A stretch of 51,754 bases of DNA from Psammoneis japonica (lineage: Eukaryota): NCBI GenBank assembly GCA_008632985.1, contig QPGO01000030.1, forward strand, positions 372,001 to 423,754, written 5' to 3'. A model generated the notes under the pieces. It ran no database searches and was not told where the DNA came from. It saw only the letters and a list, made by a program, of their open reading frames with translations. The position numbers and the translations under genes are program-made. Positions 2,057 through 51,328 of the stretch are shown in pieces (position 1 is the stretch's first letter; each line of letters opens with the position of its first letter).

Positions 2057-2396
2057 TCAGATTCCTATTATTTGCGTGCGACAGATTCCTATTTGCGTAC
2101 GAAAGGAGGAAATTTCGTACGACAGATTCCTATTTGCGTGCGAAATGAGGCAATTTCGTACGAAGGATTCCTCCGGTGCTACGAAATCGACTCGAAATTG
2201 ACGAAATGTTCCGATTCCGGTATATTTCTTACGTGAGATCCACCACGAAAAATGGAATCTTTCTTTTGAAAATCAGCTTTCGTCGACGTACAAAAAGGAA
2301 TCTTGGTTGAAAGAAAGAATCCTCTAGTCGTGCCAAAAAGGAATCTTGCTTTTCCATTCATTACACCAAGTTATGTGAAAAAGGAATCTTGCTTTG
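2057..2396. repeat. Phased subterminal-type repeat array (AGATTCC copies followed by inverted GGAATCT copies), probable DNA transposon end
   Basis: (A/G)GATTCC at 2059, 2083, 2124, 2165. AAAA(A/T)GGAATCTT with GGAATCT starting at 2254, 2297, 2340, 2383 (exact 43-bp period). Confidence 0.7.
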
Positions 2397-4063
2397 CAGA
2401 CCATCATTCCCCTCGCGATCGCTGTGAGACGGTGCGACGACACACGGCGAGCGAACGGCATGTCGCCCATGACGGAAGCGACATCGCCTTGCCAACACTG
2501 TGAAACAGAAGGTTCTGGCCAGTGCAGGCTAATGAGAGTTGCACTTGAGCATTGTGGCCATGTTCAATGCCTTTGCTGTGTGACAGAACTGGACGCCGCC
2601 TGAGGCGAAAAACTGAGACGCCACAGTCGTGAGTTCATCACTCATCACGGCATCAGATCACAAACGTCTGAATGCATTGTTCCGACTAACTTGTTCCTTT
2701 CAATGGAAAGCACAGCCAGCAGAATGATGCAACAATGTGAGCGAGCTTGTTGAGTCAGTCTTTCCAACTGTGCGGGTTTGATCCCCTCAGCCCGATTCAC
2801 ATGCAACGTGAGTGTGTCCAGATTCAAAAGATTGACAGGCTCCATTGGGGCGAAGCCAGAAAAGTCGTGCCGAACGGTCTGTCAATGGTGGCGAAGTTTT
2901 TTTTGCTGTTCAAAAATCTCGATGCTGAAAACACTTGTCGAAAATCGGCTTTCGTCACTCGCTGGAAAACACCCAGTTCCAGCGAGTGACGAAAGCTGAT
3001 TTTTGACATCGTCCATTGTGAAAGCTCCAGAACAAGAGCAAAGTGTAGAAACAAGGCGTCCCATGAGCAATTTGTGCAGTGTGCAAACCTGCATGATGTT
3101 GCCAAACCCCGGATTGAATGTCAAATTTATGATGTGATCAACGTCCAGACATTGACGTGAAAATCAATTCGAAAAAGGCGAACAGAAAAGTTGTTTCTGC
3201 TTGAACAAATGCCAAATTTTCAACAACAAACATTTGCTTTCCGCTCACTCTGACCGACACAACATGCATTTGACCTTGTCCAGCTCGTCACGAGCTTTCC
3301 ATGACACACGGGTTGTGGGGTCTGCGAGGTCATCCCGAAAAAACTTCTCAACCATTGACAGACTGTCGGTGGGATGACAAGATGAGAGCACACAACTTTG
3401 TCATCTTGCCCAGCTCCCAATCATCCCTCATGCATTGCACCAGCAAACGTCAGCCAAATTGTTCGTTTCCAAACAAATGCCAATTTCAGATGGATCATTG
3501 TGTCCAAACCGTTCATGTTTTGCCAGCATCAAAACATTCTGGAGTGCACCATTGTCTGCACAGGCGATTCATGAATGTGACGGGGAGGAGTGCGGTGCAC
3601 CGAGTTCAAACAAGTTGGCATTGTGTGCCTGTCCGCTGTTTCGTGGTGGGTTGCGCTCTACGAGAGATTAGAAACATGACGAACCTCGGCATGTGGGTTC
3701 TACGTTCTACCGTGCTTCTATGATGTGCAAGTCATGAACGTCCCAGTCTAGAGTCTTTTCGTTTGCCCTCACGATCTTGCTGTCAATCTCGGTTCTACAA
3801 TGTTTCAATCCTGCGAAGAGCAACTTGACATTGACAACAACCGCTTGGAGGGCGCAGCACCTCTTCACGTTTCTGAATTGACACTGCTCCGTAAGTTTCA
3901 CCACTTTTCAAGAGGGCACACCAAATTTCTTCCACCCATGTTGCTCAAATCTCCCTTTGCCACTTGCCCCTTTCAGGACATTTTTCAGTTCAGCAAGTTT
4001 GCTTCTACAATCAGCACAAGAATTGGGCATTTTACAAGCTTGGGTGAGTTTGATTTTCGCACG

Positions 4064-4500
4064 CAGGCCAACTGATTGCAAAGTTTTCTGCAGCAATCAG
4101 ATTGCAGTCAGTCGATTGCATCACTGTGGACAGCAATTGGCCAACTGCAATTGCACAGCGATTGCGCGGTCTGATGAACAGATCAATCGCCCCACCGGCC
4201 AGGCGCACCCCCCGTGCAGGGGCTCTCTCTGCGCAAGAGCGCTCTCTGCGCAAGAGCGCTCTCTGCGCAAGAGCGCTCTCTGCGCAAGAGTGCACTCCGC
4301 GCAGGAGAAATCGAGCAATTTCACTGATTTCAGCTGACAAAAGAGCTTGAATTTCGATTGCAATCGATTGCAACAGTGACTGTGATTGCGACCTCGGCTC
4401 TTTCCCGACAATCAGGTCATTGCAATCGAGTTTGCAATTGCGATTGCAGTCAAAGTGAGGCTGGCTGATTGCAATTGATCCCAGCAATTAGTTGACGCTG
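4064..4500. mobile_element. hAT-like MITE with degenerate TIRs and 8-bp TSD
   Basis: Left end CAG-GCCAACTGATTGC versus reverse complement of right end CAGCGTCAACTAATTGC. Flanks TTCGCACG (4056-4063) and TTTGCACA (4501-4508). Many internal (G)ATTGCAAT(C) motifs. Confidence 0.65.
4225..4290 (+). repeat. 17-bp tandem repeat (CTCTCTGCGCAAGAGCG) x~4 at MITE centre
   Basis: Directly visible tandem copies, each nearly self-complementary. Confidence 0.9.
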
Positions 4501-4583
4501 TTTGCACATGCTTTCATCTCTCTTGCTGTCACCACACATGGACAGTCACAGCAATCTCAACCCCGTCCTCTTTCTTCCAACAG

Positions 4584-5150
4584 AATTGCTGAACATGGAA
4601 GGCAATCTTGTTTCTGGCACTCTGCCGGAAGTGATGAAAGATTTGACAAGCTTGAGCAGGTCGATTATCAGTCTCCCGAAATTTCGTGCACCAATTGATC
4701 ACGTCTGCCCTTGACTGGCATTTGCCTTGTTCGTTCGTTCGTTCGTTTGTTTGTCCGTTCGTTTGTTCCTTGACAACCCAAGAATGCGTCTCGTTTGAAA
4801 GCAACAAGTTGTGTGGTCCCCTTTTTGATTTTGTCATGGAACAGAAGGAAGCAGGTGTTGGAAAAGAACAAGTTCTGCACCATCCTGCATTTGCTCTTTC
4901 CAATGCCCCTGATTCTCATTCAATTTCAATCGAAATCATGGCTGAGAGGACCCACTTCACTGGAACGCTCCCGGCTGATCTGCGCTTGTCGTCAAACTTG
5001 GGTGACGCTCCACTTTGGTTGCAGCTTTGTCAATGGAGTGAGCCTTTCTCATCTGCATGCGTGTGTTTGCCCGTGTCTGCGTCAGCCAAGGTAAACACTG
5101 CTGGAGCAAATCTTGTTGGTGCAGACAATCCCAACTGAAATGGGCCTTGT
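4584..5150 (+). pseudogene. Leucine-rich-repeat gene relic with 72-nt exons
   Basis: Exons 4584-4655 (LLNMEGNLVSGTLPEVMKDLTSL), 4783-4854 (CVSFESNKLCGPLFDFV) and 4930-5001 (EIMAERTHFTGTLPADLRLSSNL) are each 72 nt. A fourth, frameshifted exon has TIPTEMGL. Splice sites are damaged: GC donor at 4656, AA acceptor at 4928-4929. Confidence 0.75.
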
Positions 5151-5755
5151 TTTTGCAACCTGGGTGCGTTTCGATTTACACGCATTGCAGCAGATGGCAG
5201 ACAATGCTTTTTGTTGCCATCCATTGTCATCGGCATCAGTTTTCATCATCAGAGAGAGAATGTTGTGCCCGTTGTCTTGGACCCTCCACAACAGACACCG
5301 TAAAAATTTTCCAGCGATGCAGGCGATGCCATTTAAAGAGTGATGGCGCGAGCAGCAAAGAAGCAAGAGATCCCAGCGGTCCAGACACACAACTTGTTGG
5401 GACTTGGGGAGCACTGGCTTTTTCACATGCGTTCGTGCTCACTCTCTCTCTCTCTGTCCAAGACGTTGCTTGCTCATGACTCTGCCAATTTCGAGATGAC
5501 AATGTTCTCTGTTTAAAGACAGGAACAAAGACATTGTTTTGACGAGAATTCCAAATGACGGGGCAGTGTCGCCAAGAGGAGCAGTTTGCATGACATCGGA
5601 GGGAAAAGAAAAGGGCCACTTCCTGAGCTCACATGCTTCGGGAACACTGCCGTTTCAGTTGGAATCCGCAGCATTTGCGTGGCCTCCAGTGCAATGCACT
5701 CGAGCTGCCGTTTGACCTGCTGTTCTGCGGTTTCAGCGGGAATCCATGGAATCCA

Positions 5756-5882
5756 CGTGGCTTCCAGCACAAAAGAGATTCTGAATTGCTGGAGTGAAAT
5801 GGTCTGCCATTTCAGCAGGAATCTGTGGAAATGACGTGGCTTCCAGCACAAAAGATTTTGAATTGCTGGAGTGAAACGGTCA
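5756..5882 (+). repeat. Local direct duplication (~47-49 bp, ~80-bp offset)
   Basis: CGTGGCTTCCAGCACAAAAGA(GA)TT(C/T)TGAATTGCTGGAGTGAAA(T/C)GGTC occurs at ~5756 and ~5836. Confidence 0.8.
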
Positions 5883-7029
5883 CTGCAAATGTCAGTTGAG
5901 ACAGGAATTCATAGAATCTGGTGCAAGTTCCATGGAAGAAGACTGCTCATGCCCGCAAATTTCCCGTGACTGCTCATTCAGTCTCATCATTCATTGCTCT
6001 CACAATTTGCTCAAGAGACGCACTTCGCCCCATTGCTTCACAGCATTCATGATGCTCACTTTTTTCTCCAAGTTCGCAAACCGCAAAGCTGTGGTTGAAG
6101 ATGGTGCATCTGAAGCGAAGCGCACGATGTGTCCTCACGTCCGCAGCATGGCAAAAACCCTGAAGCTTTCTTTGAAGAAGTTCCTCTGCATGCCGTGAAC
6201 CGAGCAAGTCAAGATGATTTTGGAGTTTGAATCCCTCGCCACTGCGATCGAGAACAAGGTCAACAGCTTGAAGGAGGCAGCTTCGACTCTGCGCGAACAG
6301 GCTCAGAGCAAACCTTAGACTCTGAGCCTGTGCCGCGTGCATGCCACTGTGTGGAGCTGGATCGCATGATCGATGAGCCAGCATGAAAGAAGGCAAGAAG
6401 AGGCTTGCGAACATCCAGCCCAAGATTGCGACATTTCGTGATGTGCTCGAGAAGCAGCAAGAGATTCTCAAGTGTCCTCAGATGACATTGCAGGAGGTTC
6501 GGATTGCTTGGCTGTGACCTCCATGAGGATTGTTCCCTTTCGGAACCCGCTGATCTCTCCAAGACCATGATGACAAAAGAGGAACACCAAGAGTGCATTG
6601 CTCGCATCTTGCTCATCAACATGGAGACACCCTCTTTGAAGTGCAAAGCCTTGGACATGTTGGAGTCAGCTCCGTCGGCTGATGACAAGGGATGATGCAG
6701 AGGAAGGCGCAGATGGCACCCATGAAGGATCTGACCCCCCCCCCCCCCCCCCCCACCAAGAAGGCCAAGATGGAAGGCAACTGGATTCCATGAACAAGGA
6801 GACCAAGGCAGAGTGCATTTTTCATTGGGCAGCATCTGGCAAAGGCAGCAACAGTGCAGCGCATTGTTCTGCAAGAAATCCAGAAAGTGCAACGGCAATC
6901 TTCCACAGCATCAAACAGTTTCACAGGCTCAGCGCATCAGTCCAACTGCATCAGCTCGGCTTGCCTTTGGTGCAGTGGGAAATGAGAGGGACTGACAACT
7001 CGCTGTGAATGGAGTGCACTCATTAAAAA

Positions 7030-8880
7030 GCAAGTGTCATCAGAAAGAAAATGTCAATTCCCACGTCACTGTTGTCATCCAGTTGCGCAAACAGATCTTT
7101 TCTCCAAGGATCAAATTTGGATTGTTTCGGTGCCAAGTGTGCTGGGGCAGGTGCTTTGGAACAATCAGTGACTGTGGTGTTGTGGAAGATGTTGGTGTGG
7201 GGAAATGTGTGGTGGGAGAGGTGCGCAAAGCGCGCTTGGGGATGGAGAGAAAAAGTGTGGGCCCAAAGTGCAGACAGACGGCTGAGGTGAGGAGTTGTCA
7301 GCAAGGGTGCCGGTGGGGTGGTGAAGCAGCTGATCTCGGTGCGAAGAGAGATGGTGGGAGAGAGCACAGCCAAAGTTGAGGCCAAGGATTTGGGAGGCCC
7401 AGAGTTGGGGTGTGGCTGCATGGCAAGATGAGCCAAAACGGTCTGGGGAGAGCAGTTTCCAGGCGTGTTGGAGTGGGTGAGGAGGTCGGAAGGGGCAAGC
7501 AGTGAGTCAGTGAAGGCAGAGAAGGATGCTTGAGAGTTGGAGAAGGAAGATGGGTTTGTCCAGGGTGGCTTGGAGGAAGGGGTGGGACAGAGGCGGATGA
7601 TGAAGAGGAGGAGCTGAAGAAAAAAACGTGAAATGGCATCCAATGCCACCCAGGTGGTCGAATGTGAATGGGAGAAGGAAGAGGCCAGCTTGGTTGATGG
7701 CGTCAATGACATCAGAGCTGGGGGCGGATTGTGCAGAGTGACCAAGAAGCTTGTCCCATGTGCTCTGCTGAGGTGAACCTTGTTTGATGGGTTTTCAGGG
7801 ATGGGTGAGCCAGGTGCAGGAAGCAGGGGAGCTGGTGGTGCGGTGACATCAATGGCCAAGAAGTGATGAGCAGATTGGGCGTTGGGTGGTGTGGAGCCAG
7901 GAGCAAGTTGTGCGCCGACGTCGGCGGGGCATTTGAGGGGGTGGTCAACTGGGAGACCGGCTGGTTCAAGGTGCACTTGTTGACAGGAGAGGCACAGGCC
8001 GCAAAGGTGGCCTGGAGTGTCAATGACAGTGCAGATGGTGTCATGGATGTGGTTGGACAGCGGCTTTTGTGCATTTTGGAGCATGCGAAGGCGTGATCTC
8101 TGAAGGGGTCAGGGCGGGTGTGGCCATGTGTGGACAGTCATGTTGGAGTGGAGCGGCAGAGATTGTTGGGAGGCGCAGCTTGCGGAGGAGAAGGAGTGCA
8201 AAAATGTGTGAATGGAGTCAGTTGGAGATGGAGGATTGGGAGAGAGAGTGCAGGCAAAGGCTTGTTGGAGGGGATGGAAGGGATGGAAGGGCTGGTTGTG
8301 TGGAAGGATCAGCCAGGATCAGAGGAAGGGTGTTGGTTTTGTGGTGATGTGGATGAAGGCATTGCACGAGACCGTGCAGGTTGTGGTGTTCAATGGCATG
8401 CTTGAGGGAGGCAAAGGAGGAAGAGTCGAAACGGAGGAGAATGGGGGTGCAGTGACGGAAGATGCGGCAGAGGGAGAGGGTGGAGCGCGGGTTAGACCAT
8501 GAGCCAAGAGCAGCAGAACGGCTTGGAGGGAGATGAAAGATGTCGCCACCGGTGAGTGGGATGCCATGCTTGGTGTAGCGCATTGATCTTGTGAGCAAAG
8601 CAACAAGAGCTGGGATGGCGACAGCGGAGATGTCGCGACATCTGACACCACCCAAAGAAACGGGTGGGTTGGCAATGAGTTTGGCGGCTGAAGGGAAGGG
8701 GGCGGAGTGTTGAGTAAGGTGGGCAAGGAAACGCAAGGAATGGCGGATGATTTTGTCAACAAAAGGTGATGCCCATTGGAAAGGAGGGGTTGAGAAGTCG
8801 TTGGAGTGCATGAGGTTGAAACATGCATCAGCCGCGAGAAGGTGGTGTTGCCGGAGGAGCCGCCGCCGCGCTTGCGAATC
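7030..8880 (-). mobile_element. 5'-truncated, decayed non-LTR retrotransposon of the restriction-like-endonuclease group (CRE/R2-like)
   Basis: Minus-strand fragments occur in canonical order: post-RT PVSLGGVRCRD..AIPA, knuckle CPH...DPFRDHAFAC, SNHIHD (HNxxRD-like), VHLEP, CPADV (RPAD-like), LAIDVT, LLPFTFDHLGGIG. Multiple frameshifts. Ends approximate. Confidence 0.75.
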
Positions 8881-9207
8881 TTGAATCATCTCCCGTGTGG
8901 CCTGTCAGTCGTTACCGCGCCGCACATGCGAAATCAGATGAGGACTCGTGTGCCCAACAGTACCTTTCTTTCTTATTTATCTTCTCCTCGCTCATTCGCA
9001 TCCGCTCATCCTCATCTACTTTTGAGTTTTAAGCCACAGCATTTGGTTGCTAAGAGAGAGTGCCTACGACTTAAATTTTGCAGCTAAGACCTTTTTGGGT
9101 AGAGGCCACTCCCAGCTTGGGAGGTCTGTAACAAAAGTACCGTGCGGGTAAGTTCCATTGAAACATCGGGGGTCCTCTCTGGGGAACGTGCTAGTTTGAC
9201 ATTATGT

Positions 9208-12200
9208 CTACCTGGTACAACTACTCTCAAGCAAACGTCGCTCGTTGCTTTCTTGGGATCCTTGTTGGCGAAAGGGCTGGCCGTGTCGGACTCGCTTCAA
9301 TATATCTCCAGCTACCAAGCAGTAGTCTTGATGAGATGAAACCAAATCAGAAACGTCAACATTTTCCACTCCATCGATATCAACTGGACAAGTGCCACAG
9401 ACAGGTTTGAATCCGCCAGATAATCGCTTAAACTTGAACATAAGAGAAAGCACCAAGTCTTTACGAGAATAGCAATTGACAAGTCGCCCTGCAACAACCC
9501 GTCGGCAGGCAGCCCAGGATGACAGACTCAAGTGATTTGGCATTCCCATCAGAATGACGTCTTCTACAATACTCGCCGGTTCCCTCATGAGTTCTATCAG
9601 TTCGTCGTTGGCGGCCCTCTTCTTCATTCCTGTTCGACCGTCTTCTCCCAAAGCCCTGTTTTGGCGTAACTCCTCCCAGTGTTCTTGATATCTTGCAAGT
9701 TCTTTCAAACAAGTATAGATTGTGCGTGCGCCCATTGAAAATCCTACCAGAACTACGGGACGATAACCGGCACGACTGAGAAGCAGAGAACGGGCCAACT
9801 CTTTGCCGGCTTCCTCCGAGCGCTCAATAGCTAGCGTCCATGTGCCATCGATCATATTTGCTGCATTGACCAGCACATACGGCAATGCCAACGACGAGAG
9901 AAGCGTCGAGAGAGCAGTCTGCTTCAAGACATGTGCCGTAGCGCCTCCCATCATATCTAGCGCTAAATCCTCGACTGAATCACTCAGTTCCAACAGGAGT
10001 TTACTCTCCCACTTTACTGTATATTGTTCTCCTCCGAAATTCGCTTGATAATCCCATACAGTAGCGATGTGCTTTGGAATTGTACGCTCTTTGTCATCTT
10101 GATCTTCCGTCGCTAGCATTGCTGAAGAATCCACAGATATCGTGCTGCTGTCTAACCCCGACGAGACGTGAGACCCGTGTTCCGAGGCAGACGACGTACC
10201 GTCTACACGAAATTTGCGAAAAGAGTCAGAGAGTGGAGTTCTTATACGCTGGCTACCGACCACCGAGTTCTGGGGAGTTGCGTGCTGAGATGACAAGCCT
10301 TCGCCGCGCTGACTGCGTCTCATAATCTTCTGTCTCCATCCTGACTTCGATTTCTCACCGGGAGTCATTTCCTCATCGCCGCGACCTCGAGCCGAAGAAT
10401 CCCTTTCCTTCTTCGGGGACAAGGACACATCCGAATCACGCTCCTGAGTGGAAAATCCAAGCTCATAAAGAATGTTTCCAACGATTTCGGTTTGTTCGAG
10501 TGTCAACGCCGCCCTGTGTCTCGGACCGTCGTCGAGAGGAAACAAGTGGGAAGGATCGCTACCATAGGTCTCCCTTAGATATTGCCAAAGCTCCCGTTCC
10601 TGACCTTTCCATCTCTTCAATATCGTCGGGGCTCTAGTAATGTACTCCGGCTTATGAATGGCATAGAAACGCTCGAGTAGTTCTTGTAGGTCTTTCACAC
10701 GTGGATTGCTCGGGGTCACACCCCAAGGTCTCTGGAAGTCGCAAGCATCCCTGAGCCACCCAGAAAGACAGATTGTACTAAAAAGCTCCGCTTCTATCTT
10801 TTTCTTGACTGGACGGCCGCCAATGTCACGTTTATTACCACTTTCTTTTTGAAATTCAAACTCCGTCAATCCTTGTGTGCGTCGTTGCATTTTGTATGCA
10901 GCGAGCCCTCCACCACCAACGCCGAATATCGCGGTGATTGCCGCACTACTAGTCAGTGTCACGACAGCGGCGGTGGCGGCCGAAGAGCCTGCGACAGCTG
11001 CCACTCCGGCCGCAATTCCCGGAGCCGCGAGCCCTCCCGTTACGGCAAACAACGTGCCGGCAACGAGACCAGCAGAACCAATCTTCAGACCTCTCACTAT
11101 CTGATCTCGGGATACCCCCTTCTTTCGTGTACTACCTCGTTCCTGCGAACTGTGTGGGTTTGCTTCTCGTCTATTTGATCGACCCTCTGACGAAAGATGG
11201 AGAAGCTTCCAGGCAATGATATGTTCTAGGGATTCAAACTTGCGCGTTGCTGCGCTTTCAAATTCAATGTTGGTAAAGGAAGCAGTCCCTCCATCCTTGT
11301 CCCCCGGTAAATCACAAGCATCACGTTTCATTTCTTGAACCAACACAATTACACCTAACTTTTTGAAAACATGGCGAACCCTAGCGTCGTATCCCACTGC
11401 GCTATGAAGTAACTGTTGCAAAAGCAAGAGCGCAAGACACCTGAAGCCAGACCCCGGGGAAAGAGACTCCAAGAACGGTTGAAGCGACTGGTCGCTATCA
11501 AGCTCCATTGTCTTGGGATTTGTATCGCCAAAGTCTCGATTCGAAATTTCAGAATGCATTGTTGAATCTGTCGCAACTGACGGAGACGGCAAAAACTCGC
11601 ATTCCAAATCGTTTGAACGCGCGGTCGACGATGCGGTAGCATGAGACGAAGCGTAGAAATCACTATGTATTTCGTTCATTCCTTCGTTTCCTGGTGAAGC
11701 AGGCATTGACTGGGCGCGTTGTGGTGATGTCTGTTGACGAGATTGTGGTCGTCTTTCGCGTTGTTGGGGGTTGTATGACGGGGCTTTTCGTCGGGAAGGA
11801 TTCGGCAACAAGAGACGATCAAGCATTGGAAGGAACGCCCGCGCATGGCTCTTCTCCAGCAAGAGAAGTTCAGCAGCTGAGAGAAGCAAGTCCGAAAAAA
11901 TCTGATAGCGCCGCAGTCGATGTCGACTTTGAGCCAAATCAGTTGCTTCATCATTCTTGTTTCGTCGACGGCCTGAGTTTCTATCGGTTTGTTTGTTAGA
12001 ATCCCTAGAGCTCGATCCTTTCTCCATACCGCCAGACGATCTACTCTGTGAGAAATTTCTCTGAAATTTTCGTGCTGATGCCGGGACTCGGCTAGGTCTT
12101 TTCGTTTCATCTGAAATTCCACTCTCGCCGTGAGCTGATGTCTGCGGTGTACGATCGGGGCTACTGTTCGTGCTGGAACGCGATATCGATTGTCTCAGGT

Positions 12201-12708
12201 CAAGCTTTTCCTCGTCGTCCGACATATTTCCATCATCACTATCGTCGTAATAAGCAAACGAGTCAGTCATTGTAAGCGTAGCCGAATCTTCATCGTTGTC
12301 ACGAGAATAGTCATAATCATAGGAGGAAGCCAGTACAGCTGCAAGACATCCCTGTCGAATCGCGCATGAAAAAAAAGGAAGTTTGAACGGTCTGTCAAGC
12401 AACATACCTGGTACCAGCAGCATTTCTCAACTTACAATAAATCGCTTTCGATCCTGCTCTCCCGGTAGCGCAGGCAATGTTTCGGTGAGCAACGATTCAA
12501 GGCGGGGTGACGCAGGAGTTGCTTTTGAACTGTCTTCATCGTCGTCCGACACTGCGGAACTTGGGGTGTCTAGCAACGACTTGGCGGCCGATTGAACCAG
12601 CGAGGCAGTGTATGTCCTTGAAACAGGAGTCTCGATAGATTGCGAGGAGCTTTCGACGTTGTTCTTACTAAGCGGATGATCGACAACACCTCGAACCATT
12701 GGTGACAT
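9208..12708 (-). CDS. TMCO4 / DUF726 family protein (alpha/beta-hydrolase-like)
   Basis: Motifs GYDARVRHV, AVTGGLAAP hydrophobic segment, GGGGLAAYKMQRRTQGLTEFEF, PVVLVGFSMGARTIY (GxSxG) and RRVVAGRLVNCYSRKDLVL. Intron 12435-12352 joins DRKRFI|GCLAAVLASSY. The true start may be 12776/12782 if a 1-nt error lies near 12712. Confidence 0.85.
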
Positions 12709-41460: not shown

Positions 41461-41823
41461 GTCAGTCGGTCCGCTTGAAGCTGAACAAATTGTACGGTAG
41501 GCGAGCTTTCGGTCGTTTCAATCTTCTTTCAACGACTTCGATAAGGACGAAGATGCCACCCAGTATGGTATTTCTCTCTGTCTCAACGACTCCTTCCAGA
41601 GTTGAGGAGCGGAGTCAGTCGGTCGTTTTATGTTGCGCTTTCGTCAGTCGGTCCGCTTGAAGCTGAACAAATTGTACGGTAGGCGAGCTTTCGGTCGTTT
41701 CAATCTTCTTTCAACGACTTCGATAAGGACGAAGATGCCACCCAGTATGGTATTTCTCTCTGTCTCAACGACTCCTTCCAGAGTTGAGGAGGAGTCAGTC
41801 GGTCGTTTTATGTTGCGCTTTCG
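41461..41823. repeat. Tandem duplication (182/180 bp) immediately upstream of the DDX46 start codon
   Basis: Copies start at 41461 and 41643 (GTCAGTCGGTCCGCTTGAAG...) and differ by a 2-nt indel. Confidence 0.92.
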
Positions 41824-41859: not shown

Positions 41860-44800
41860 CATGTTGTTTGGTGGTTTGGGGTCGCTGCTCGCTGCTCGCT
41901 CGCGCGTTGCGCGCAGGATGGGGCGGGTCTGCCATTCTTCCAGAGCCCCGTGGTTCTTGTCACGAGATGTCGGCATGTGGGAAGAATGAAAGAGGTGGCC
42001 GCCGGAGGCGGCCCAGAAGAATAAACTGAAAAGGAGAAAGGAAAAGAGAGAGAGGAAAAGAAAGGAAAAAGGAGAAAAACAAGAGAAGACGTTGTGGGGC
42101 TGTCAACTTGCGGCCCTTGGCTAGGCTTCTGCCCGCAAAGCAGCTTGTCTGTGACTTGAGGTGCTGCGGTTTTACACGCTTGGCAGCAAAGCTCCCACAG
42201 CATGCTGGAGAACTGCAGAGTTGTGCCAGTCTTTGGCACAGCTTGACAGCGGCATCTTTTGTGAGGAGCGCTTGCTGCCAGCCCATCATGGCTTTTTGGG
42301 CAGCTTGTTTTCCAAGCCTTGCCCCACCAGCTTGGTGGCCACTGCCGCGGATCTGTGTCTTCTTTGTTCTCCAAAATTCAGTGCACACTTTGGCGGGTTT
42401 GGCCCCAGCGCTGTGTCCAAACAATTCTCTGAAGTTTCCAAGTGAGAAAACGCAGTGTCGTCCTCTTTAAAAGATCTTCACAAAGATCCCTGGCAACAAG
42501 CACTGGCCTTCCCCACCCATGCTGTCAGAAGTGCCTGCCTTGACAAATTCACAGCATCTCTCCCAAAGCATCTGTGGATGCTGTGCCCAAATTTTGGCCT
42601 CATGCGTCACAAAATCTTGAGAGAATTTGCGAGATTCACCCCATCACGTGCCGCCACCTTTGGATTTCCAGTGCAGCCATGGCTTCTGCAGCAGGCTGTT
42701 AACAAACATGCAAGCAAGTTCCCACTGGGACCTCAAATTGACCTGCAGCCTTCTTCATTCCGGCTGCACCCCTGCTTGAATTCTGGGTGGCCAGCTGAGC
42801 AAAACCTGGCTCTGTCTGTGTTTCTCAGTTCATGTTTCTGGCTTTGTCACATGCGGTGCAAAGTGCCCTCAGGAAAATGCTTGTGGTTGTGCTTGCCCAA
42901 TGCTGTCCCATCAGCCAGTGCCTTGTGGCGCAGCCCAATGCTTTGCTTGCCAGCTCTCCACTGCAAGCTCCTTGTGGCTGGTCTGGTGTCTTCAAGAAGC
43001 AAACCACACCCCATTTTTGCCCAAAGAGGGGGGGAAATCAGACCGATGCACATGCCTGAAAGACACCCTGTGTCATCAGGAGGTTCCACGATGAAAACGA
43101 GTGAGACGAATGAACAACACCACATCAGCTGCAACGTGTAAAGTGGGAGCGAGATTTTGCGAGCGGTTTTCTGTTGTCTTGGTTGTTGCGAGTGTTGCGC
43201 GAAGCCTTGTTGATGTCGAATCTATGCCACAACATGCTGACTTTGTACGCCACAAAACTTCAAAAATTTGTTGCTTTTGCACTGGGTCTACGCCACTGGG
43301 CGCATGTAGAATCTTATATAAAAATCACGTACGCCACTGTGGTACAAAATTTGTGTACACCCTGAACCATTCTACGCCACTAGTGACGTAGGCTCTGGTG
43401 TGTTTTTTACACTTCTGACTTGAATTTTTCCGTGTCGTGCAAGGGTTCCTTTCGGGAGGAGCCTGCGACACATCTGGCAACGAAAAAAGCAGACCATCAG
43501 AAGTCCCCATCTCCAGTGCTGGTGTGACCCTGTAGATTGGCTGCGGCGATGGGACCGACATTTATTTCAGGAGCATGGGTGGCATCACAGGGCGGGGCTC
43601 TGTGAGACGGTGAAGAGCCCTGGCCTGTGAAATTTTTTTGTCAGTGCAGCCTTGAAGAGTGGCCGTGCATGGCAGCAACATGAGCTGGATGTTTTGGGGG
43701 AGCACATCTCACCAGCCCCACCCAGCATGCAGAAAACAGCAGCTGCCAGCCTGCAACTGTGTGACAGCAGCTTTGATGCCACACCCACAGAAGTTGTGGT
43801 TGTTGGATTGCTCTGTGACAGCTCTGGAATGGCTTGCGAGCACTGGCTGTTTTTGGCCAGTGGCTCTGTGAAGCAAGTGCTCCCCCCCACCCTGCTGGCC
43901 AATGGTGGTTGGTGTGCTCTGTGGTCTGTGGCAGCTCTGCACTCTCCACCATGAGTCTCCTCTGATTGCATGCTTTCTGTCTCTCTGCAGAGAGGCTCCT
44001 CTTGTGGAATTTGGGCACACAGCACACACAACAAGAAAAAAAAACAACACATGACAACTCATCATCTCATCACAATCCTGTTGACACCAGCACAGCTTTG
44101 TTGCAGCACCGTCCAGCTGCCATTGTCAAATTTGACGCACAAGCTTGGTGCACCATTGGAGCAGAGAAAATTGTGGCTGCAGTCTTGCTCACAATTTTGT
44201 TGTCCAAGATTGACAACAAAGAGCCAGCACAAAATCTTGTCACTTTTTTGGGTGGCACTGATGATGTGCACTGTTGTGCTGCTGCCATCTCTGCTCCCAT
44301 CTGCTGCACCTTGCAAGCAATGTTGTGGAAGAATGTGCAAGCATCTTTTTGTTGCACCCCAGTGATGGCATTGCTGTTGTTTTTTTGTGGTGAAGGGATT
44401 GTTTTGGTCATTTTTGTGCTCACGACTCAGGTGCATGTGAGCTTGCTGGGGGCTCGCCTGACATTGTTCACATGGAAACAGTGCTCCTGTGGTGACAACA
44501 AAATGAGAAGCACCTTTGATGGTGCCAGTGGCATGATTTGTGCTGTTGATCATTGTGACAGCACCATCACTGCACAAATGACCTGGTGCTGAGGGTTTCA
44601 GCAAAAAACCTGCTGCCCAACATCTGCTGCTTTCAACCAACCCCAGTCTGGAGCACCACACAGCCTGCATGCAACCCGGCTGGCACAACATCTGCTGTGA
44701 TTCCACGACAGCCTCTTCAGCAGACAGAGAAGGCAAGCAAAGCAGAAAATTGTTGCACAATGGCTTGCAGTGGCAGAAAGCAGGTGGGCCCCACTTCACC

Positions 44801-45745
44801 AGCTTTGTTTTGTGGTGCACACAGCCAGCCAGGGGGGGATGCCAAATTGCATCTCACAACATGACAAAGTGCAAAATGCAAAAGACAACTGCCACACTTC
44901 TGCCACCTGCCATGCTGTGGACATGCACCAAAAGAAACACTGACAACTTGCCAACCACTTTCCACTTCAGTTCATTGCTTCTTCTTTTTCTTTGCTCCTC
45001 ACATCAGCCCCCCACCTCTCCAGGAGGACCTCTCCAGGACAAGGCTCTTCCTCTGCCCCCCCCTTCTCAGTGGCACATGCTTGTGACATGCAGACACAAC
45101 ACTGTGTGCCTTCATGAAAAGGGAGATGCTGAAGGGCACTTGTGTGGGTTCAAACCCCAGGCTTCTGTGTTTGTTTTGGTGTGTCCAGCTCCACTGCACC
45201 TGTCTGGCTTCTTGTGCATGGGTGCATTGACTGGTCTGTGACATTTCATTCTGTGCATTGAGCACACCTTGGCTCAGCAAAACAAAGGTGTGCATCCATC
45301 ATTGGCCTTGTTGCTGATGCTGAGGACTGGGTGGAGTTGCTGCTGTCAGCATTGCTGCCAGCTTGTCTGCTGGGTGTGTTGGCATTGTCAGACTTTTTCC
45401 AGCAAAACAAATGGCAGCCATCCAAAGTGCACCCCCAACACTGTCTCCCACACCTCTGACATGGCAGTCAACCCTTGCAAGAGTGTTGCGACAATGACGG
45501 GAAAGAAATGACTCGAGAGCAGAGACCACCAATCACTCTGGAAAACAGCAAGTCAAGGTGGGAGCCAAACAGGACACACAGGACAAAGAGCAAGGAAGTG
45601 TGCTGTGACATGTTTGTCAAGGAACAGAGAACCCACTCCATCTTCTCATGGATGAAAAAGGCTGAAAAGGGGCTCAATCTGAAGAAAACTCACAAGGACA
45701 TCAAAGTTCACCACCCAGCAAGTTTTTGCTCTTCAATGACGATGT
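41860..45745. other. TpA- and CpG-depleted hypermutated block 2 (unidentified decayed elements)
   Basis: No TA seen in 43565-45744, and CG is very rare there. TG/CA-rich. Tyr-free Cys/His-rich ORFs in all frames. Confidence 0.9.
43223..43398. repeat. TACGCCAC subterminal-type array ending in a near-palindrome; probable DNA transposon end
   Basis: TA(C/T)GCCAC at 43223, 43246, 43289, 43330, 43373. The last copy forms TACGCCAC-TA-GTGACGTA followed by GGCTCTGG. Confidence 0.65.
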
Positions 45746-47744: not shown

Positions 47745-50684
47745 TTACATACTGGTGGATCCAAAATGCTGTACAACTTTCAAGAGGGAGGTTGTCTTCA
47801 TGTTGAGACTGGGGGTGCCATCATCAAAATCAACCATGAAGGTGTTGCCATTGACCTTTCGCGCAAGTTTGCCTCGCAAGCCCTGATACTTTGGTTTGTG
47901 CTGATACGTGTCCTTCACTTGAATAACGTCGCCCACCAAAGCAGTGATTCCTTGATATTCAACGAGGTCTTCGGCTGGAGCTTGGCTCGCTTCCGACTCC
48001 TCCTCGGCGGAAATTTGCGCATCTGCTTTTGAATCTTCTTCGGCGTCTGGCGCAGGCTCTACTTCTTTCACGTCTTCGGATGCTTCATCCTCCTCCGATT
48101 CCTCGGCAGCGTCAATGGAGGGCACTGGCACTTCCTCTTGGGCATCGGACGTGGACTTTTCGTCGCTTCCAACTTCGCCTTGATTTTCGGCGCCTACTTC
48201 TGAGTCTGCCATGGACGCATCTTTTTTGGGGAAATCGCTGCCAACTTCTGGACCCGTCATGTCGGAGATTTCGGTGGACAAACGAGGAGAGGTGCTGAGT
48301 TCTTCCCCATCTTTGGAGCCTTCCGCAGCTAAACGAGGAGGGTCCATTTGCATTTCATGCTTGGGTTCGGGTTCGTCGCCTGCCTGTGCGGGTTCACTCT
48401 CCACTCGGCCCGGACTGAAAAAGTAGTCCCACAAGGCGAAACGAGAACGACGGCTGGTCGCAGTCGTTTCACTGTCGAGGACCGCATTGCTGTCGACCGC
48501 ATCATCATCAGCATTGACCAGATTGTTGGAATCGGGTGCGTCCGCATCCATATCCACGTCGGGTTCCTCGTGCGATGACGACACTTCGGGCGCATTCGCG
48601 TCCATGCACGCTGTTGTTTCGGGTGCGGCATCGCTCGTCAAGATGGTCGAAGTTGCGGTTGTGACGGGAGACTCGGGTGAGGTTACTGTCGTTGGAACGA
48701 TCCCCTCGGGCGAGGCCTGCTCCTTGGGATTGTCGAGGATCACGGGCGAAGTTGCGGTCGTGACGGGAGACTCGGGTGAGGTTACTGTCGTTACAACGAT
48801 CCCCTCGGGCGAGGCATGCTCCTTGGGATTGTCGGGGTCCGAATCGTTCGTCAAGACAGGCGAAGTTGCGGTTGGGGTGGGCGCCTCGGGCGAAGTTACT
48901 GTCGTTACAACGATTCCCTCGGGCGACGCATGCTCCTTGGGATTGTCGGGGGAGGCTTGCTCCTTGGGAGTACCGAATTCATTCTCTTCCTCCTCTTTGG
49001 GATTGGCTGTAGGTCCCGAAGGGGAACGAGGCGGAAACAATGACACGGGCTGCATTCCAGGCACTTCGGTGCCTTCCACAGCAGTTTTCCGGCGCCGATG
49101 TGCTTCAGCTGCATCCATTTGTTGTTGAGCAACGGATTGGGGCACAGAATTGATTTGTTCTGAAAGCTCCCGAGTTGAAGCTCGCTGACTCTCAAGGAGA
49201 GTCTGCGTCATCTGCTTGAGCTGCGCCGACAAATCATCACTATTACCATTTCCACCGCTTTCATTGTTATGCTGGACATTGCTCTGGTGCATCGAGTTTA
49301 CGTAGGAGTAAGTTGCCCCTTCTGTCACGTTGACGAGGTGCACCACAGGGGCTGCTGCCGGAGGAGCTTCTCCGGCTGTGTGTTGCCGCTGAAGGAGTGC
49401 CAGAACTTGCTGCAAAGGCATATTATTGTTGTTATCTTGCCCATTTGCAAGCTGTGACATGCAACAATAATGCAACGTTTGTTAGATACATGCACAATGA
49501 CGAGGTCTGCAAGCAAGGAACCCCGTGGACGACTTACAGAAAGAGGCGCTCCGACGCCCGGGGCACGCGGCTGCCCTGCGTTGCCATTATTCGACTGTTA
49601 AAAATTTTGAAACGAAAGACAATCATCATGTGAGAGGAAAGGGAATACATATTGAACAACGAGGCCGTCGGAATCAAATCTCCCGACGATTCCTACTCGC
49701 TGTGTACTTTGTACTTACGCCAGTATTCTGCTATCACAAGAATTTACACACAAAAGAGACAATCAGATACATGCACAATGACGAGGTCGGCAAGCGAGGA
49801 ACCCTGTGGAAGACTCACCGAAAGACGCGCTCCGGCGCCCGGGGCAGGCGGCTGCCCGGCGTCGCCAGTACTCGGCTGTATTACAAGAAGACATCATCAT
49901 GTGAGAGGAAAGGGAATGAACAACGAGGCGGTCGGAATCAAATCTCCCGACGATTCCTACGCGCTGTGTACTTACGCCAGTATTCTGCTATCACAAGAAT
50001 TTACACACAAAAGAGACAATCAGATACATGCACAATGACGAGGTCGGTAAGCGAGGAACCCTGTGGAAGACTCACCGAAAGACGCGCTCCGGCGCCCGGG
50101 GCAGGCGGCTGCCCGGCGTCGCCAGTACTCGGCTGTATTACAAGAAGACAATCATCATGTGAGAGGGAAGGGAATACATATTATTGAACAACGAGGCCAT
50201 CGGAATCAAATCTCCCGACGATTCCAATACGCTGTGTACTTCGTACTTACGCCAGTATTCGGCTATTTTAAAGATTAAAACAAAAGAGACAATCATTTTG
50301 TGAGAGGAAAGGGAATACATATTGAACAACGAGGCCGGCGGCGGCCGGCGGAATTGAATTGCAATCGATAGGCACAATATACACGCAGCACACTCACATT
50401 CATGCGGGCCATGCATTTCTCCAATTTTGCTTCCATCCTCTTTTGATCCCTTTTCTTCAAAGCCTTGGCTTTGCTTTCTTCTTTGCGTCGCTTGGCCTCG
50501 GCTTCTTTCTGCTCTTGGCGTTGCTTGCGCAATTCCTCCACACTTATTCCCAATGACGCGGCTTGTTGCTTGTCAGCCAATTCCTGTTTCTCTTCCTCCT
50601 CTTCCTTTTCCCTTTGGCGTTGTTGGCCTTCGCTTTCCTATTGTACTCTCTCTTTTCCTCTTCACTTTCGAATTTCTTCGGCAT
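47745..50684 (-). CDS. Unknown protein: charged coiled-coil exon 1, acidic/Thr-Pro repeats and C-terminal KOW/SH3-like domain
   Basis: Exon 1 50684-50398 (MPKKFESEEEKREY..., one apparent 1-nt deletion). Donor GTGAGT at 50397, CTAAC branch point and CACAG acceptor at 49452, phase-0 join MARMN|LANGQD. C-terminus VGDVIQVKD..YQGLRGK..FMVDFDDG. Confidence 0.6.
48640..48970 (-). repeat. Coding repeats DNPKE(Q/H)ASPEGIV(V/P)TTVTSPE x3 plus a partial copy
   Basis: Visible at both DNA and protein level within the 576-aa ORF. Confidence 0.85.
49484..50336. repeat. Tandem array of ~257-281 bp units (3 plus partial), intronic
   Basis: AGATACATGCACAATGACGAGGTC starts at 49484, 49765 and 50022. A partial fourth unit re-enters via AGACAATCA microhomology at ~50287. 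Confidence 0.9.
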
Positions 50685-50870
50685 TGTTGATAGAAGTAGC
50701 TTCAGATGATCGTCGCAAAAGGATTCTTTTTGACAAGAGGGTTTATGGTGTAGTGTCTCATCTCATAGATAGTGTGGCAGTGCATGTAAGGCCCTACCGT
50801 ACTACCGTACGGTACGTATGGTAAACTCGTGATGGATGCTTGAGAACAGAGCGAGATGGCATTGGCGGGA

Positions 50871-51328
50871 GACGGACGTACGACAGACGCGCGTTTCTCG
50901 CGCTCGGCCGGCGCCGGCCCGGCTTGACAGAGATACTCCATTGGATTGACATACCAACAATACCAATTTGGTATTTTCTTATGTCAGTCCCGGTATTTTT
51001 GGTGTCAACCCTGCCAACCCGACGGACGTACGACAGACGCGCGTTTCTCGCGCTCGGCCGGCGCCGGCCCGGCTTGACAGAGATACTCTATTGGATTGAC
51101 ATACCAACAATACCAAATTTGGTATTTTGCTTATGTCAGTCCCGGTATTTTTGGTAGTCAACCCTGCCAACCCGACGGACGTACGACAGACGCGCGTTTC
51201 TCGCGCTCGGCCGGCGCCGGCCCGGCTTGACAGAGATACTCTATTGGATTGACATACCAACAATACCAAATTTGGTATTTTGCTTATGTCAGTCCCGGTA
51301 TTTTTGGTAGTCAACCCTGCCAACCCGA
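50871..51328. repeat. Three tandem ~150-153 bp palindrome-rich units
   Basis: GACGGACGTACGACAGACG starts at 50871, 51021 and 51174. Each unit has GGCCGGCGCCGGCC and AATACCAA(A)TTTGGTATT palindromes. Confidence 0.93.

Follow-up and report, generated by a model that had tools for sequence, protein, structure and literature searches.

The window analysed here, the whole stretch of 51,754 nt from Psammoneis japonica (assembly GCA_008632985.1, contig QPGO01000030.1, positions 372,001-423,754 of the forward strand), contains a group of LRR exons that we read, with a probability of roughly two in three, as a decayed copy of an LRR receptor-like gene. On this reading the copy lies in a repeat block that has been subject to TpA hypermutation together with CpG decay, the mechanism being assigned by analogy. 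The LRR locus was found inside an island from which TpA has been nearly erased, and similar copies from one sequenced sample retain TA at positions that read TG or CA in the window; both results agree with the preliminary description of this DNA, which had proposed that an LRR gene was affected by TpA erasure.

The window is nuclear DNA and carries several long ORFs that are poor in introns, namely DUF726, myosin head, ABC transporter, DEAD-box helicase, TH1 and NPR2-like ORFs. The best named matches of the DUF726 ORF were from raphid pennate diatoms, namely Seminavis robusta (47% identity) and Amphora, Nitzschia and Cylindrotheca (44-45% identity), and its top match overall showed an identity of 63%. 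The myosin ORF had diatom matches at 54-55%. We take these matches to indicate a diatom without close relatives among the searched proteins, and Bigelowiella natans was ruled out as the source because the named best matches were diatoms (41-47% for the DUF726 ORF). Rfam and tRNA scans of the whole window revealed no match. The dinucleotide composition of the window revealed two islands with sharp borders:

2373-8912, unstranded: island 1, repeat-rich, with TpA nearly gone, an excess of TpG and CpA, and a moderate loss of CpG
42174-45744, unstranded: island 2, a stronger version of the island 1 signature, with a TA-normal gap at 43223-43563

The NPR2-like and DUF726 genes beside the islands were spared and have normal TA. 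Island 1 contains 27 TA dinucleotides in 6540 nt, with O/E values of 0.07 for TA, 1.47 for TG, 1.58 for CA and 0.63 for CG, compared with 0.61, 1.08, 1.07 and 1.05, respectively, outside both islands. The two parts of island 2 (42174-43222 and 43564-45744) showed O/E values of 0.02 for TA, 0.20 for CG, 1.89 for TG and 1.79 for CA, and no TA at all was found in the last 2.2 kb (43565-45744). The dinucleotides other than TA, CG, TG and CA were near background in the islands. The CpG O/E of island 2 is 0.06-0.2 and the CG value of island 1 is 0.63, and because of this difference we conclude that the loss of TA and the loss of CpG are not tightly coupled. The 340-nt gap in island 2 keeps 15 TA and contains four copies of a TACGCCAC motif, which are spaced approximately 30-55 nt apart; it gave no Rfam or tRNA match and may have been inserted later or have been protected as an element. 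Another local feature was observed in island 1, where the multi-copy region 7000-8900 has a + strand with 38-44% G and 12-16% C (GC skew +0.4) and TG is about twice as frequent as CA.

As TAA and TAG have been erased, long open frames fill the islands. Together, the two islands hold 85 ORFs of at least 70 aa on both strands, the longest of which is 361 aa, and gene finders would probably call false genes in them. None of these 85 stop-to-stop ORFs reached a Pfam cut-off or contained a transposon or viral domain, and reverse transcriptase, transposase and kinase domains were likewise absent from the Pfam results. The weak matches below the cut-off included DUF4803 (0.0095) and a Vps8 RING finger (0.005).

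Within island 1, the preliminary description had flagged positions 4584-5150 as containing three 72-nt LRR exons. We recovered all three (exons 1, 2 and 3 below), each of which encodes one 24-residue plant-type LRR, and found that the locus extends past the flagged range with four additional exons, which we named Z, A, B and 4:

3615-3688, + strand: LRR exon Z, 74 nt after the AG at 3613-3614, with the LRR frame from 3616 and the donor GCATGT
3689-3818, + strand: intron Z-A, with the GC donor GCATGT and an AG acceptor
3819-3890, + strand: LRR exon A, 72 nt, with the donor GTAAGT, in which TA is kept
3977-4043, + strand: LRR exon B, 67 nt (5 nt short), with a broken frame between A and B and the donor GTGAGT
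4044-4583, + strand: long intron B-1, 540 nt, with a high-copy repeat and GATTGCAATC-type palindromes
4584-4655, + strand: LRR exon 1, 72 nt, the best-preserved LRR of the locus
4656-4782, + strand: intron 1-2, 127 nt, with the GC donor GCAGGT and an AG acceptor
4783-4854, + strand: LRR exon 2, 72 nt, with TGC at 4785-4787, TGT at 4812-4814 and the donor GTGTTG
4855-4929, + strand: intron 2-3, 75 nt, ending in AA (...TTTCAA), not AG
4930-5001, + strand: LRR exon 3, 72 nt, with the conserved Asn changed to Thr and the donor GTGACG
5091-5163, + strand: LRR exon 4, 73 nt, whose LRR frame contains TAA at 5092, with a frame break between 3 and 4 and the donor GTGCGT

The donor at 4656-4661 and the two Cys codons of exon 2 stand in the sequence as the preliminary description gave them; the GTAGGT that it expected at this donor was a guess and is not in the sequence. 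Additionally, the long intron contains five 17-nt tandem units at 4183-4301. A short final exon after 5163 was ruled out, as its intron would be only 27 nt long. Intron prediction at ORF junctions yielded too many candidates, and hexamer counts were used instead to examine the donors.

Plant-type LRR units of 24 residues follow the motif LxxLxLxxNxLxGxIP, and Zambounis et al. reportedly described in 2012 an arrangement of one LRR per 72-nt exon in the LRR genes of brown algae. When the seven LRR-like units were combined into a profile, 92 distinct PDB sequences were matched at E<=1. The FLS2 ectodomain ranked first (E=1.4e-36), the 16 best matches (E<=3e-21) were all ectodomains of plant LRR receptor kinases, and the ectodomains of ERL1, PEPR1 and GSO1 were also matched. 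Searches with single read-through frames gave no such result; Pfam on five read-through LRR ORFs returned only Oxysterol_BP at chance level (E=0.29), and a protein search with the read-through ORF 4656-5138 gave 38 candidates, none of which reached E<=0.01. In contrast to plant-type LRR receptor-like proteins, no kinase, membrane anchor or N-terminus was found at the locus, and its frame is broken.

For comparison with other copies, we used three runs of one sample, which is possibly the sample behind the window assembly. Run X2 had a very uneven depth, and a fraction of 0.30 of the words was present in it. The exon borders 4655|4783 are backed by a contig of a similar copy, found in X1 and X2, in which 148 nt between 4653 and 4802 are skipped and 21 nt stand instead. 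What this contig lacks corresponds exactly to intron 4656-4782 (127 nt), and the GC...AG borders are set by this match. Among the loose ends listed for X2, one contig loses its likeness at 4854 and continues directly into a homologue of exon 3, and by our reading of this junction the start of exon 3 was set at 4930, and hence intron 2-3 at 4855-4929. Another contig joins a homologue of the end of exon Z directly to 3819, which fixes intron Z-A at 3689-3818. Two GC-AG introns (4656-4782 and 3689-3818) thus have independently set borders, and their removal from RNA is predicted. The sample contains an intron-less relative of the LRR gene, in which intron 1-2 is missing exactly (depth 51 in X1 and 67 in X2); judging from the loose ends listed for X2 at 3819 and 4854, this relative has neither intron Z-A nor intron 2-3. 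It may have arisen as a processed copy or may represent an ancestral form that never had introns.

Splicing of the model gave exons Z and A in frame, a frame shift caused by the 5-nt deficit of exon B, and one open frame through exons B, 1, 2 and 3; exon 4, with its surplus of 1 nt, does not continue the frame of exon 3 and carries the TAA in the LRR frame. An intact reading frame is absent, with breaks at A|B and 3|4, and the locus yielded neither a recognisable start nor a signal peptide or membrane anchor. On account of the two frame breaks, the AA acceptor, the in-frame TAA and the lost Asn, we conclude that the LRR locus is a pseudogene, a relic and not a live gene.

The same results bear on the view that the locus is a working gene, in which the GC-AG introns and the Cys residues would be features of the family and the low TA would reflect local composition. 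GC-AG introns are the commonest non-canonical class, exons B, 1, 2 and 3 do splice to a single open frame, and the contigs over 4657 showed no difference from the window among the best 40 of 927 difference rows. However, a working gene is hard to reconcile with the 67 nt of exon B, which place A and B out of frame, with an exon 3 that has no AG acceptor and has lost its conserved Asn, with the 73-nt exon 4 and its TAA, and with the missing start, signal peptide and membrane anchor. The introns and the 6.5 kb surrounding the locus are TA-poor to the same degree as the exons, which argues in the same direction. We regard a working gene as improbable. The depletion of TA itself exceeds what chance would give. 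Only 2 TA were found in 4584-5150, although the background O/E of 0.61 predicts 22.9 (Poisson P=3e-8), and exons 1-4 contain 1 TA, compared with 12.3 expected (P=6e-5).

Island 1 is largely repeated. On 2301-9300, we found 673 X1 contigs at >=80% likeness, of which 95 were at >=99%, 113 at 95-99%, 188 at 90-95% and 277 below 90%. The word depth of unique contigs was approximately 47-65, and the summed contig depth, which is not equal to copy number, was 2269 over 3939-4172, 1604 over 7449-7682, 130-180 over the LRR exons and 49-88, or roughly single-copy, over 6045-6980. Over the repeat of intron 4044-4583, it ranged from 795 to 2269, which is up to approximately 40 times that of unique contigs. 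The differences between the X1 contigs and the window were dominated by transitions; G>A was counted 224 times, C>T 175 times, A>G 172 times and T>C 117 times, while each transversion class had 17-43 cases.

The contexts of these differences were taken from the best-supported 40 of 927 rows, and the context counts may therefore be biased. Among these 40 rows, 19 show G or C in the window and A or T in the other copy; 12 of the 19 give TA in the other copy (chance approximately 0.37, P=0.018), and 3 lie at a window CpG. In all five A>G rows of this set, the window has CA and the other copy CG, and in two of the four T>C rows the window has TG and the other copy CG. As judged from these sequences, the window copy appears to have lost TA as well as CG in comparison with its relatives. 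The direction of change was inferred from composition and not from an outgroup, and the window copy was taken as the changed one because it is this copy, rather than the others, that departs from the composition of its own genome.

In the RIP of ascomycete fungi, CpA is changed to TpA, which leaves an excess of TA and creates stop codons. If a RIP-like C-to-T change at CpA had acted on the other copies, these would have gained TA and the window would stand near the ancestor; pairwise differences alone give no direction, and diatoms have DNMT4 enzymes that are related to fungal RID, with no function assigned to them in the accessible text of the source (PMC9998398). We nevertheless attach very little weight to this reversed direction. 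The window copy is the outlier, with a TA O/E of 0.02-0.07 in the islands against 0.61 outside them, and the TA excess by which fungal RIP is recognised was seen nowhere in the window. Furthermore, island DNA of single-copy depth is also free of TA.

The window and the contigs did not agree throughout. At 4667, 4680 and 5062, all covering contigs differ from the window (A>C, A>C and T>C, respectively), which reflects either assembly errors or strain differences; if the contig letters are right at 4667, the TA at 4666 is not real. Every contig contradicting the window at the first two positions would be expected if long-read miscalls of modified bases had given false TG and CA, as would the finding that, of the 31-letter words sampled from 2401-12400, 22% are absent from X1. 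Such an artefact is scarcely credible, however, since X1 contigs (with an even word depth of approximately 47-65) repeat the TA-free sequence, with 1 other letter in 6806-7372 and 11 in 5955-6719, and hundreds of diverged copies show the same type of difference.

We next compared single sites of the LRR locus with the similar copies. Among the same 40 of 927 rows, TG or CA in the window faces TA in the other copy at 7 sites of 3614-3692, and the reverse was found at 1 site (P=0.035), in agreement with the proposed erasure. In the LRR frame of exon Z, the other copies have TAT where the window has CAT at 3619, and TAC where the window has TGC at 3653. Base 3690 is C in the window (GCATGT) and T in other copies (GTATGT); T was found at a depth of 75.3 of 143.4 in X1, in 2 contigs, and of 211.6 of 211.6 in X2. 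This site would represent a T-to-C change at TpA at donor position +2, one intron upstream of intron 1-2 in our account of the locus. At least one GC donor of the locus (3689) thus appears to be a recent T-to-C change relative to the other copies and not a conserved feature, and its use in splicing is predicted.

The further suggestion that the Cys codons of exon 2 replaced Tyr codons was borne out in part. The intron-less copy has TAC where the window has TGC at 4785-4787, but the surrounding spliced stretch at the exon 1-2 junction agrees at only 11 of 21 positions, and this single difference could be due to chance; among the best 40 of 927 difference rows, none was at 4657 or 4813. Over the seven LRR units together, Tyr accounts for 0 of 161 residues, compared with 2.3% in background ORFs (P=0.024), and Cys for 3.1%, compared with 1.4%.

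The view that GTA is the usual donor was supported by the hexamer counts outside the islands, where GTANGT occurs 81 times against 42.1 expected and GTGNGT 68 times against 71.5. The donors of the seven exons are GTG in four cases, GCA in two and GTA in one, as expected if GTA was converted either way. The last 14 nt of exons B and 1 differ by TA versus TG only. The comparison of exon B with exon 1 was rejected as a means of polarising the changes, as one TA/TG column hits a conserved Gly and cannot be erasure.

Several lesions of the gene are not of the TA type, namely the 5-nt deficit, the change of the acceptor from AG to AA and the 1-nt surplus. Given these lesions of other kinds, we regard it as no more than possible that TpA erasure killed the gene through splicing, as the preliminary description had it; that erasure diversifies LRR receptors, which had also been put forward, is speculation.

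The LRR part is covered by at least 3 distinct contigs (3 at 5062). Another copy, which was found in both X1 and X2, joins 3721 to 4941, so that exons A, B, 1 and 2 (1219 nt) are gone, and it keeps the GTATGT donor; this junction is a rearrangement at the LRR locus. The number of contigs, the rearranged copy, the copy that lacks intron 1-2 exactly in the manner of a processed copy, and the high-copy repeats beside the gene and inside its intron would all suit LRR exons that are the cargo of a mobile or retro-copied unit and were mutated like other repeats. We consider this unlikely, since the window copy keeps its introns and hence is not itself processed, and since no reverse transcriptase or transposase domain was found in the island. 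Moreover, plant-type LRR receptor-like genes are ordinary in diatoms, and the accessible text of one source describes genes of pennate diatoms that are annotated as plant-type LRR receptor-like kinases (PMC5485032).

The proposal that the process spread from adjacent TEs was only partly sustained. Multi-copy repeats do adjoin the locus, but neither transposon nor viral domains were found in the 85 island ORFs. The region 6045-6980 is fully erased despite its roughly single-copy depth, and a sub-zone inside the gene (3641-4043) has a TA O/E of 0.36 between stretches at 0.05 and 0.06. Taken together, the few LRR copies, the erased 6045-6980 and the TA-keeping 3641-4043 argue against a simple spread from the edges. 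These data suggest that island 1 is a mosaic whose pieces differ in their history. At 48600-51300, we also observed several families of tandem and interspersed repeats, with units 99-281 nt long and normal TA; as these repeats keep TA, repetition within the window is not sufficient for erasure. Just to the left of island 2, two 149-nt direct repeats (41461-41609 and 41643-41791) are 100% identical, lie 182 nt apart and have normal TA.

The closest known system is that of Bigelowiella natans, for which the accessible text of a preprint reports that mutation-accumulation lines were used to measure TpA hypermutation directly (Mettrop et al., bioRxiv 10.64898/2026.01.13.699255). Two integrated viral regions accounted for 231 of the 302 new single-nucleotide mutations; nearly all were A>G or T>C changes, which invariably lay at TpA (bioRxiv 10.64898/2026.01.13.699255). 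The same text describes 124 clusters of TpA-poor, CpA+TpG-rich windows and an enrichment of reverse transcriptase and DDE domains in TpA-poor CDS, among which some host-like domains also occur; most depleted sequences are without annotation, and the text proposes an ADAT2-like protein as a candidate DNA adenine deaminase (bioRxiv 10.64898/2026.01.13.699255). By composition, both islands of the window fall into the class of clustered TpA-poor, CpA+TpG-rich windows that is used in B. natans. The exclusive change of TpA to TpG or CpA described in that text is the same as the one that we read in the islands, in our case with a direction taken from composition. There are also differences. B. natans is a chlorarachniophyte (Rhizaria), whereas the window is from a diatom; the targets measured in the accessible text are two inserts, a single-copy one from a giant virus and one from a virophage, whereas here they are multi-copy unclassified repeats and an LRR relic; and the islands of the window are near saturation and show CpG loss. 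A literature search returned no report of TpA hypermutation in diatoms.

The islands also resemble the products of RIP, in that a dinucleotide-specific transition hypermutation of repeated DNA leaves sharp islands and can affect duplicated host genes and neighbouring low-copy DNA. They differ from these products in that TA is destroyed and stop codons are removed. Additionally, the enzymology of RIP is cytosine deamination, while that of the islands is presumably adenine deamination.

In the reading that we prefer, a copy of a plant-type LRR receptor-like gene, bearing introns and with one LRR per 72-nt exon, would have decayed in a 6.5-kb repeat block in which A-to-G transitions on one strand or the other turned TpA into TpG or CpA, alongside ordinary CpG decay. 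Tyr codons in the LRR copy would have become Cys or His codons, and GTA donors would have become either GTG, which is harmless, or GCA, which yields GC donors. By analogy with B. natans, adenine was likely deaminated enzymatically in DNA marked as repeated, silenced or foreign. The LRR copy may have been exposed to this process as one of several similar copies or through its position between high-copy repeats.

TpA-only hypermutation has so far been measured in one organism, as described in the accessible text of one 2026 preprint. If the islands are the long-term product of such a process, it would be present in a second, ecologically dominant algal group, where it would run to saturation and reach host-like gene sequences. 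The LRR relic offers a concrete example of the predicted side effects, namely the loss of Tyr, the change of donors and the removal of TAA and TAG. It is possible, although doubtful, that diatoms have an active TpA-directed DNA-editing defence that also acts on duplicated host receptor genes. If this were true, TpA editing would be old within the SAR lineages or would have evolved repeatedly, and it would act as a RIP-like brake on the expansion of gene families and also generate variation among LRR receptors, turning Tyr into Cys or His and GT donors into GC donors and removing stop codons instead of making them. The finding is relevant to the annotation of diatom genomes and to the search for the responsible enzyme.
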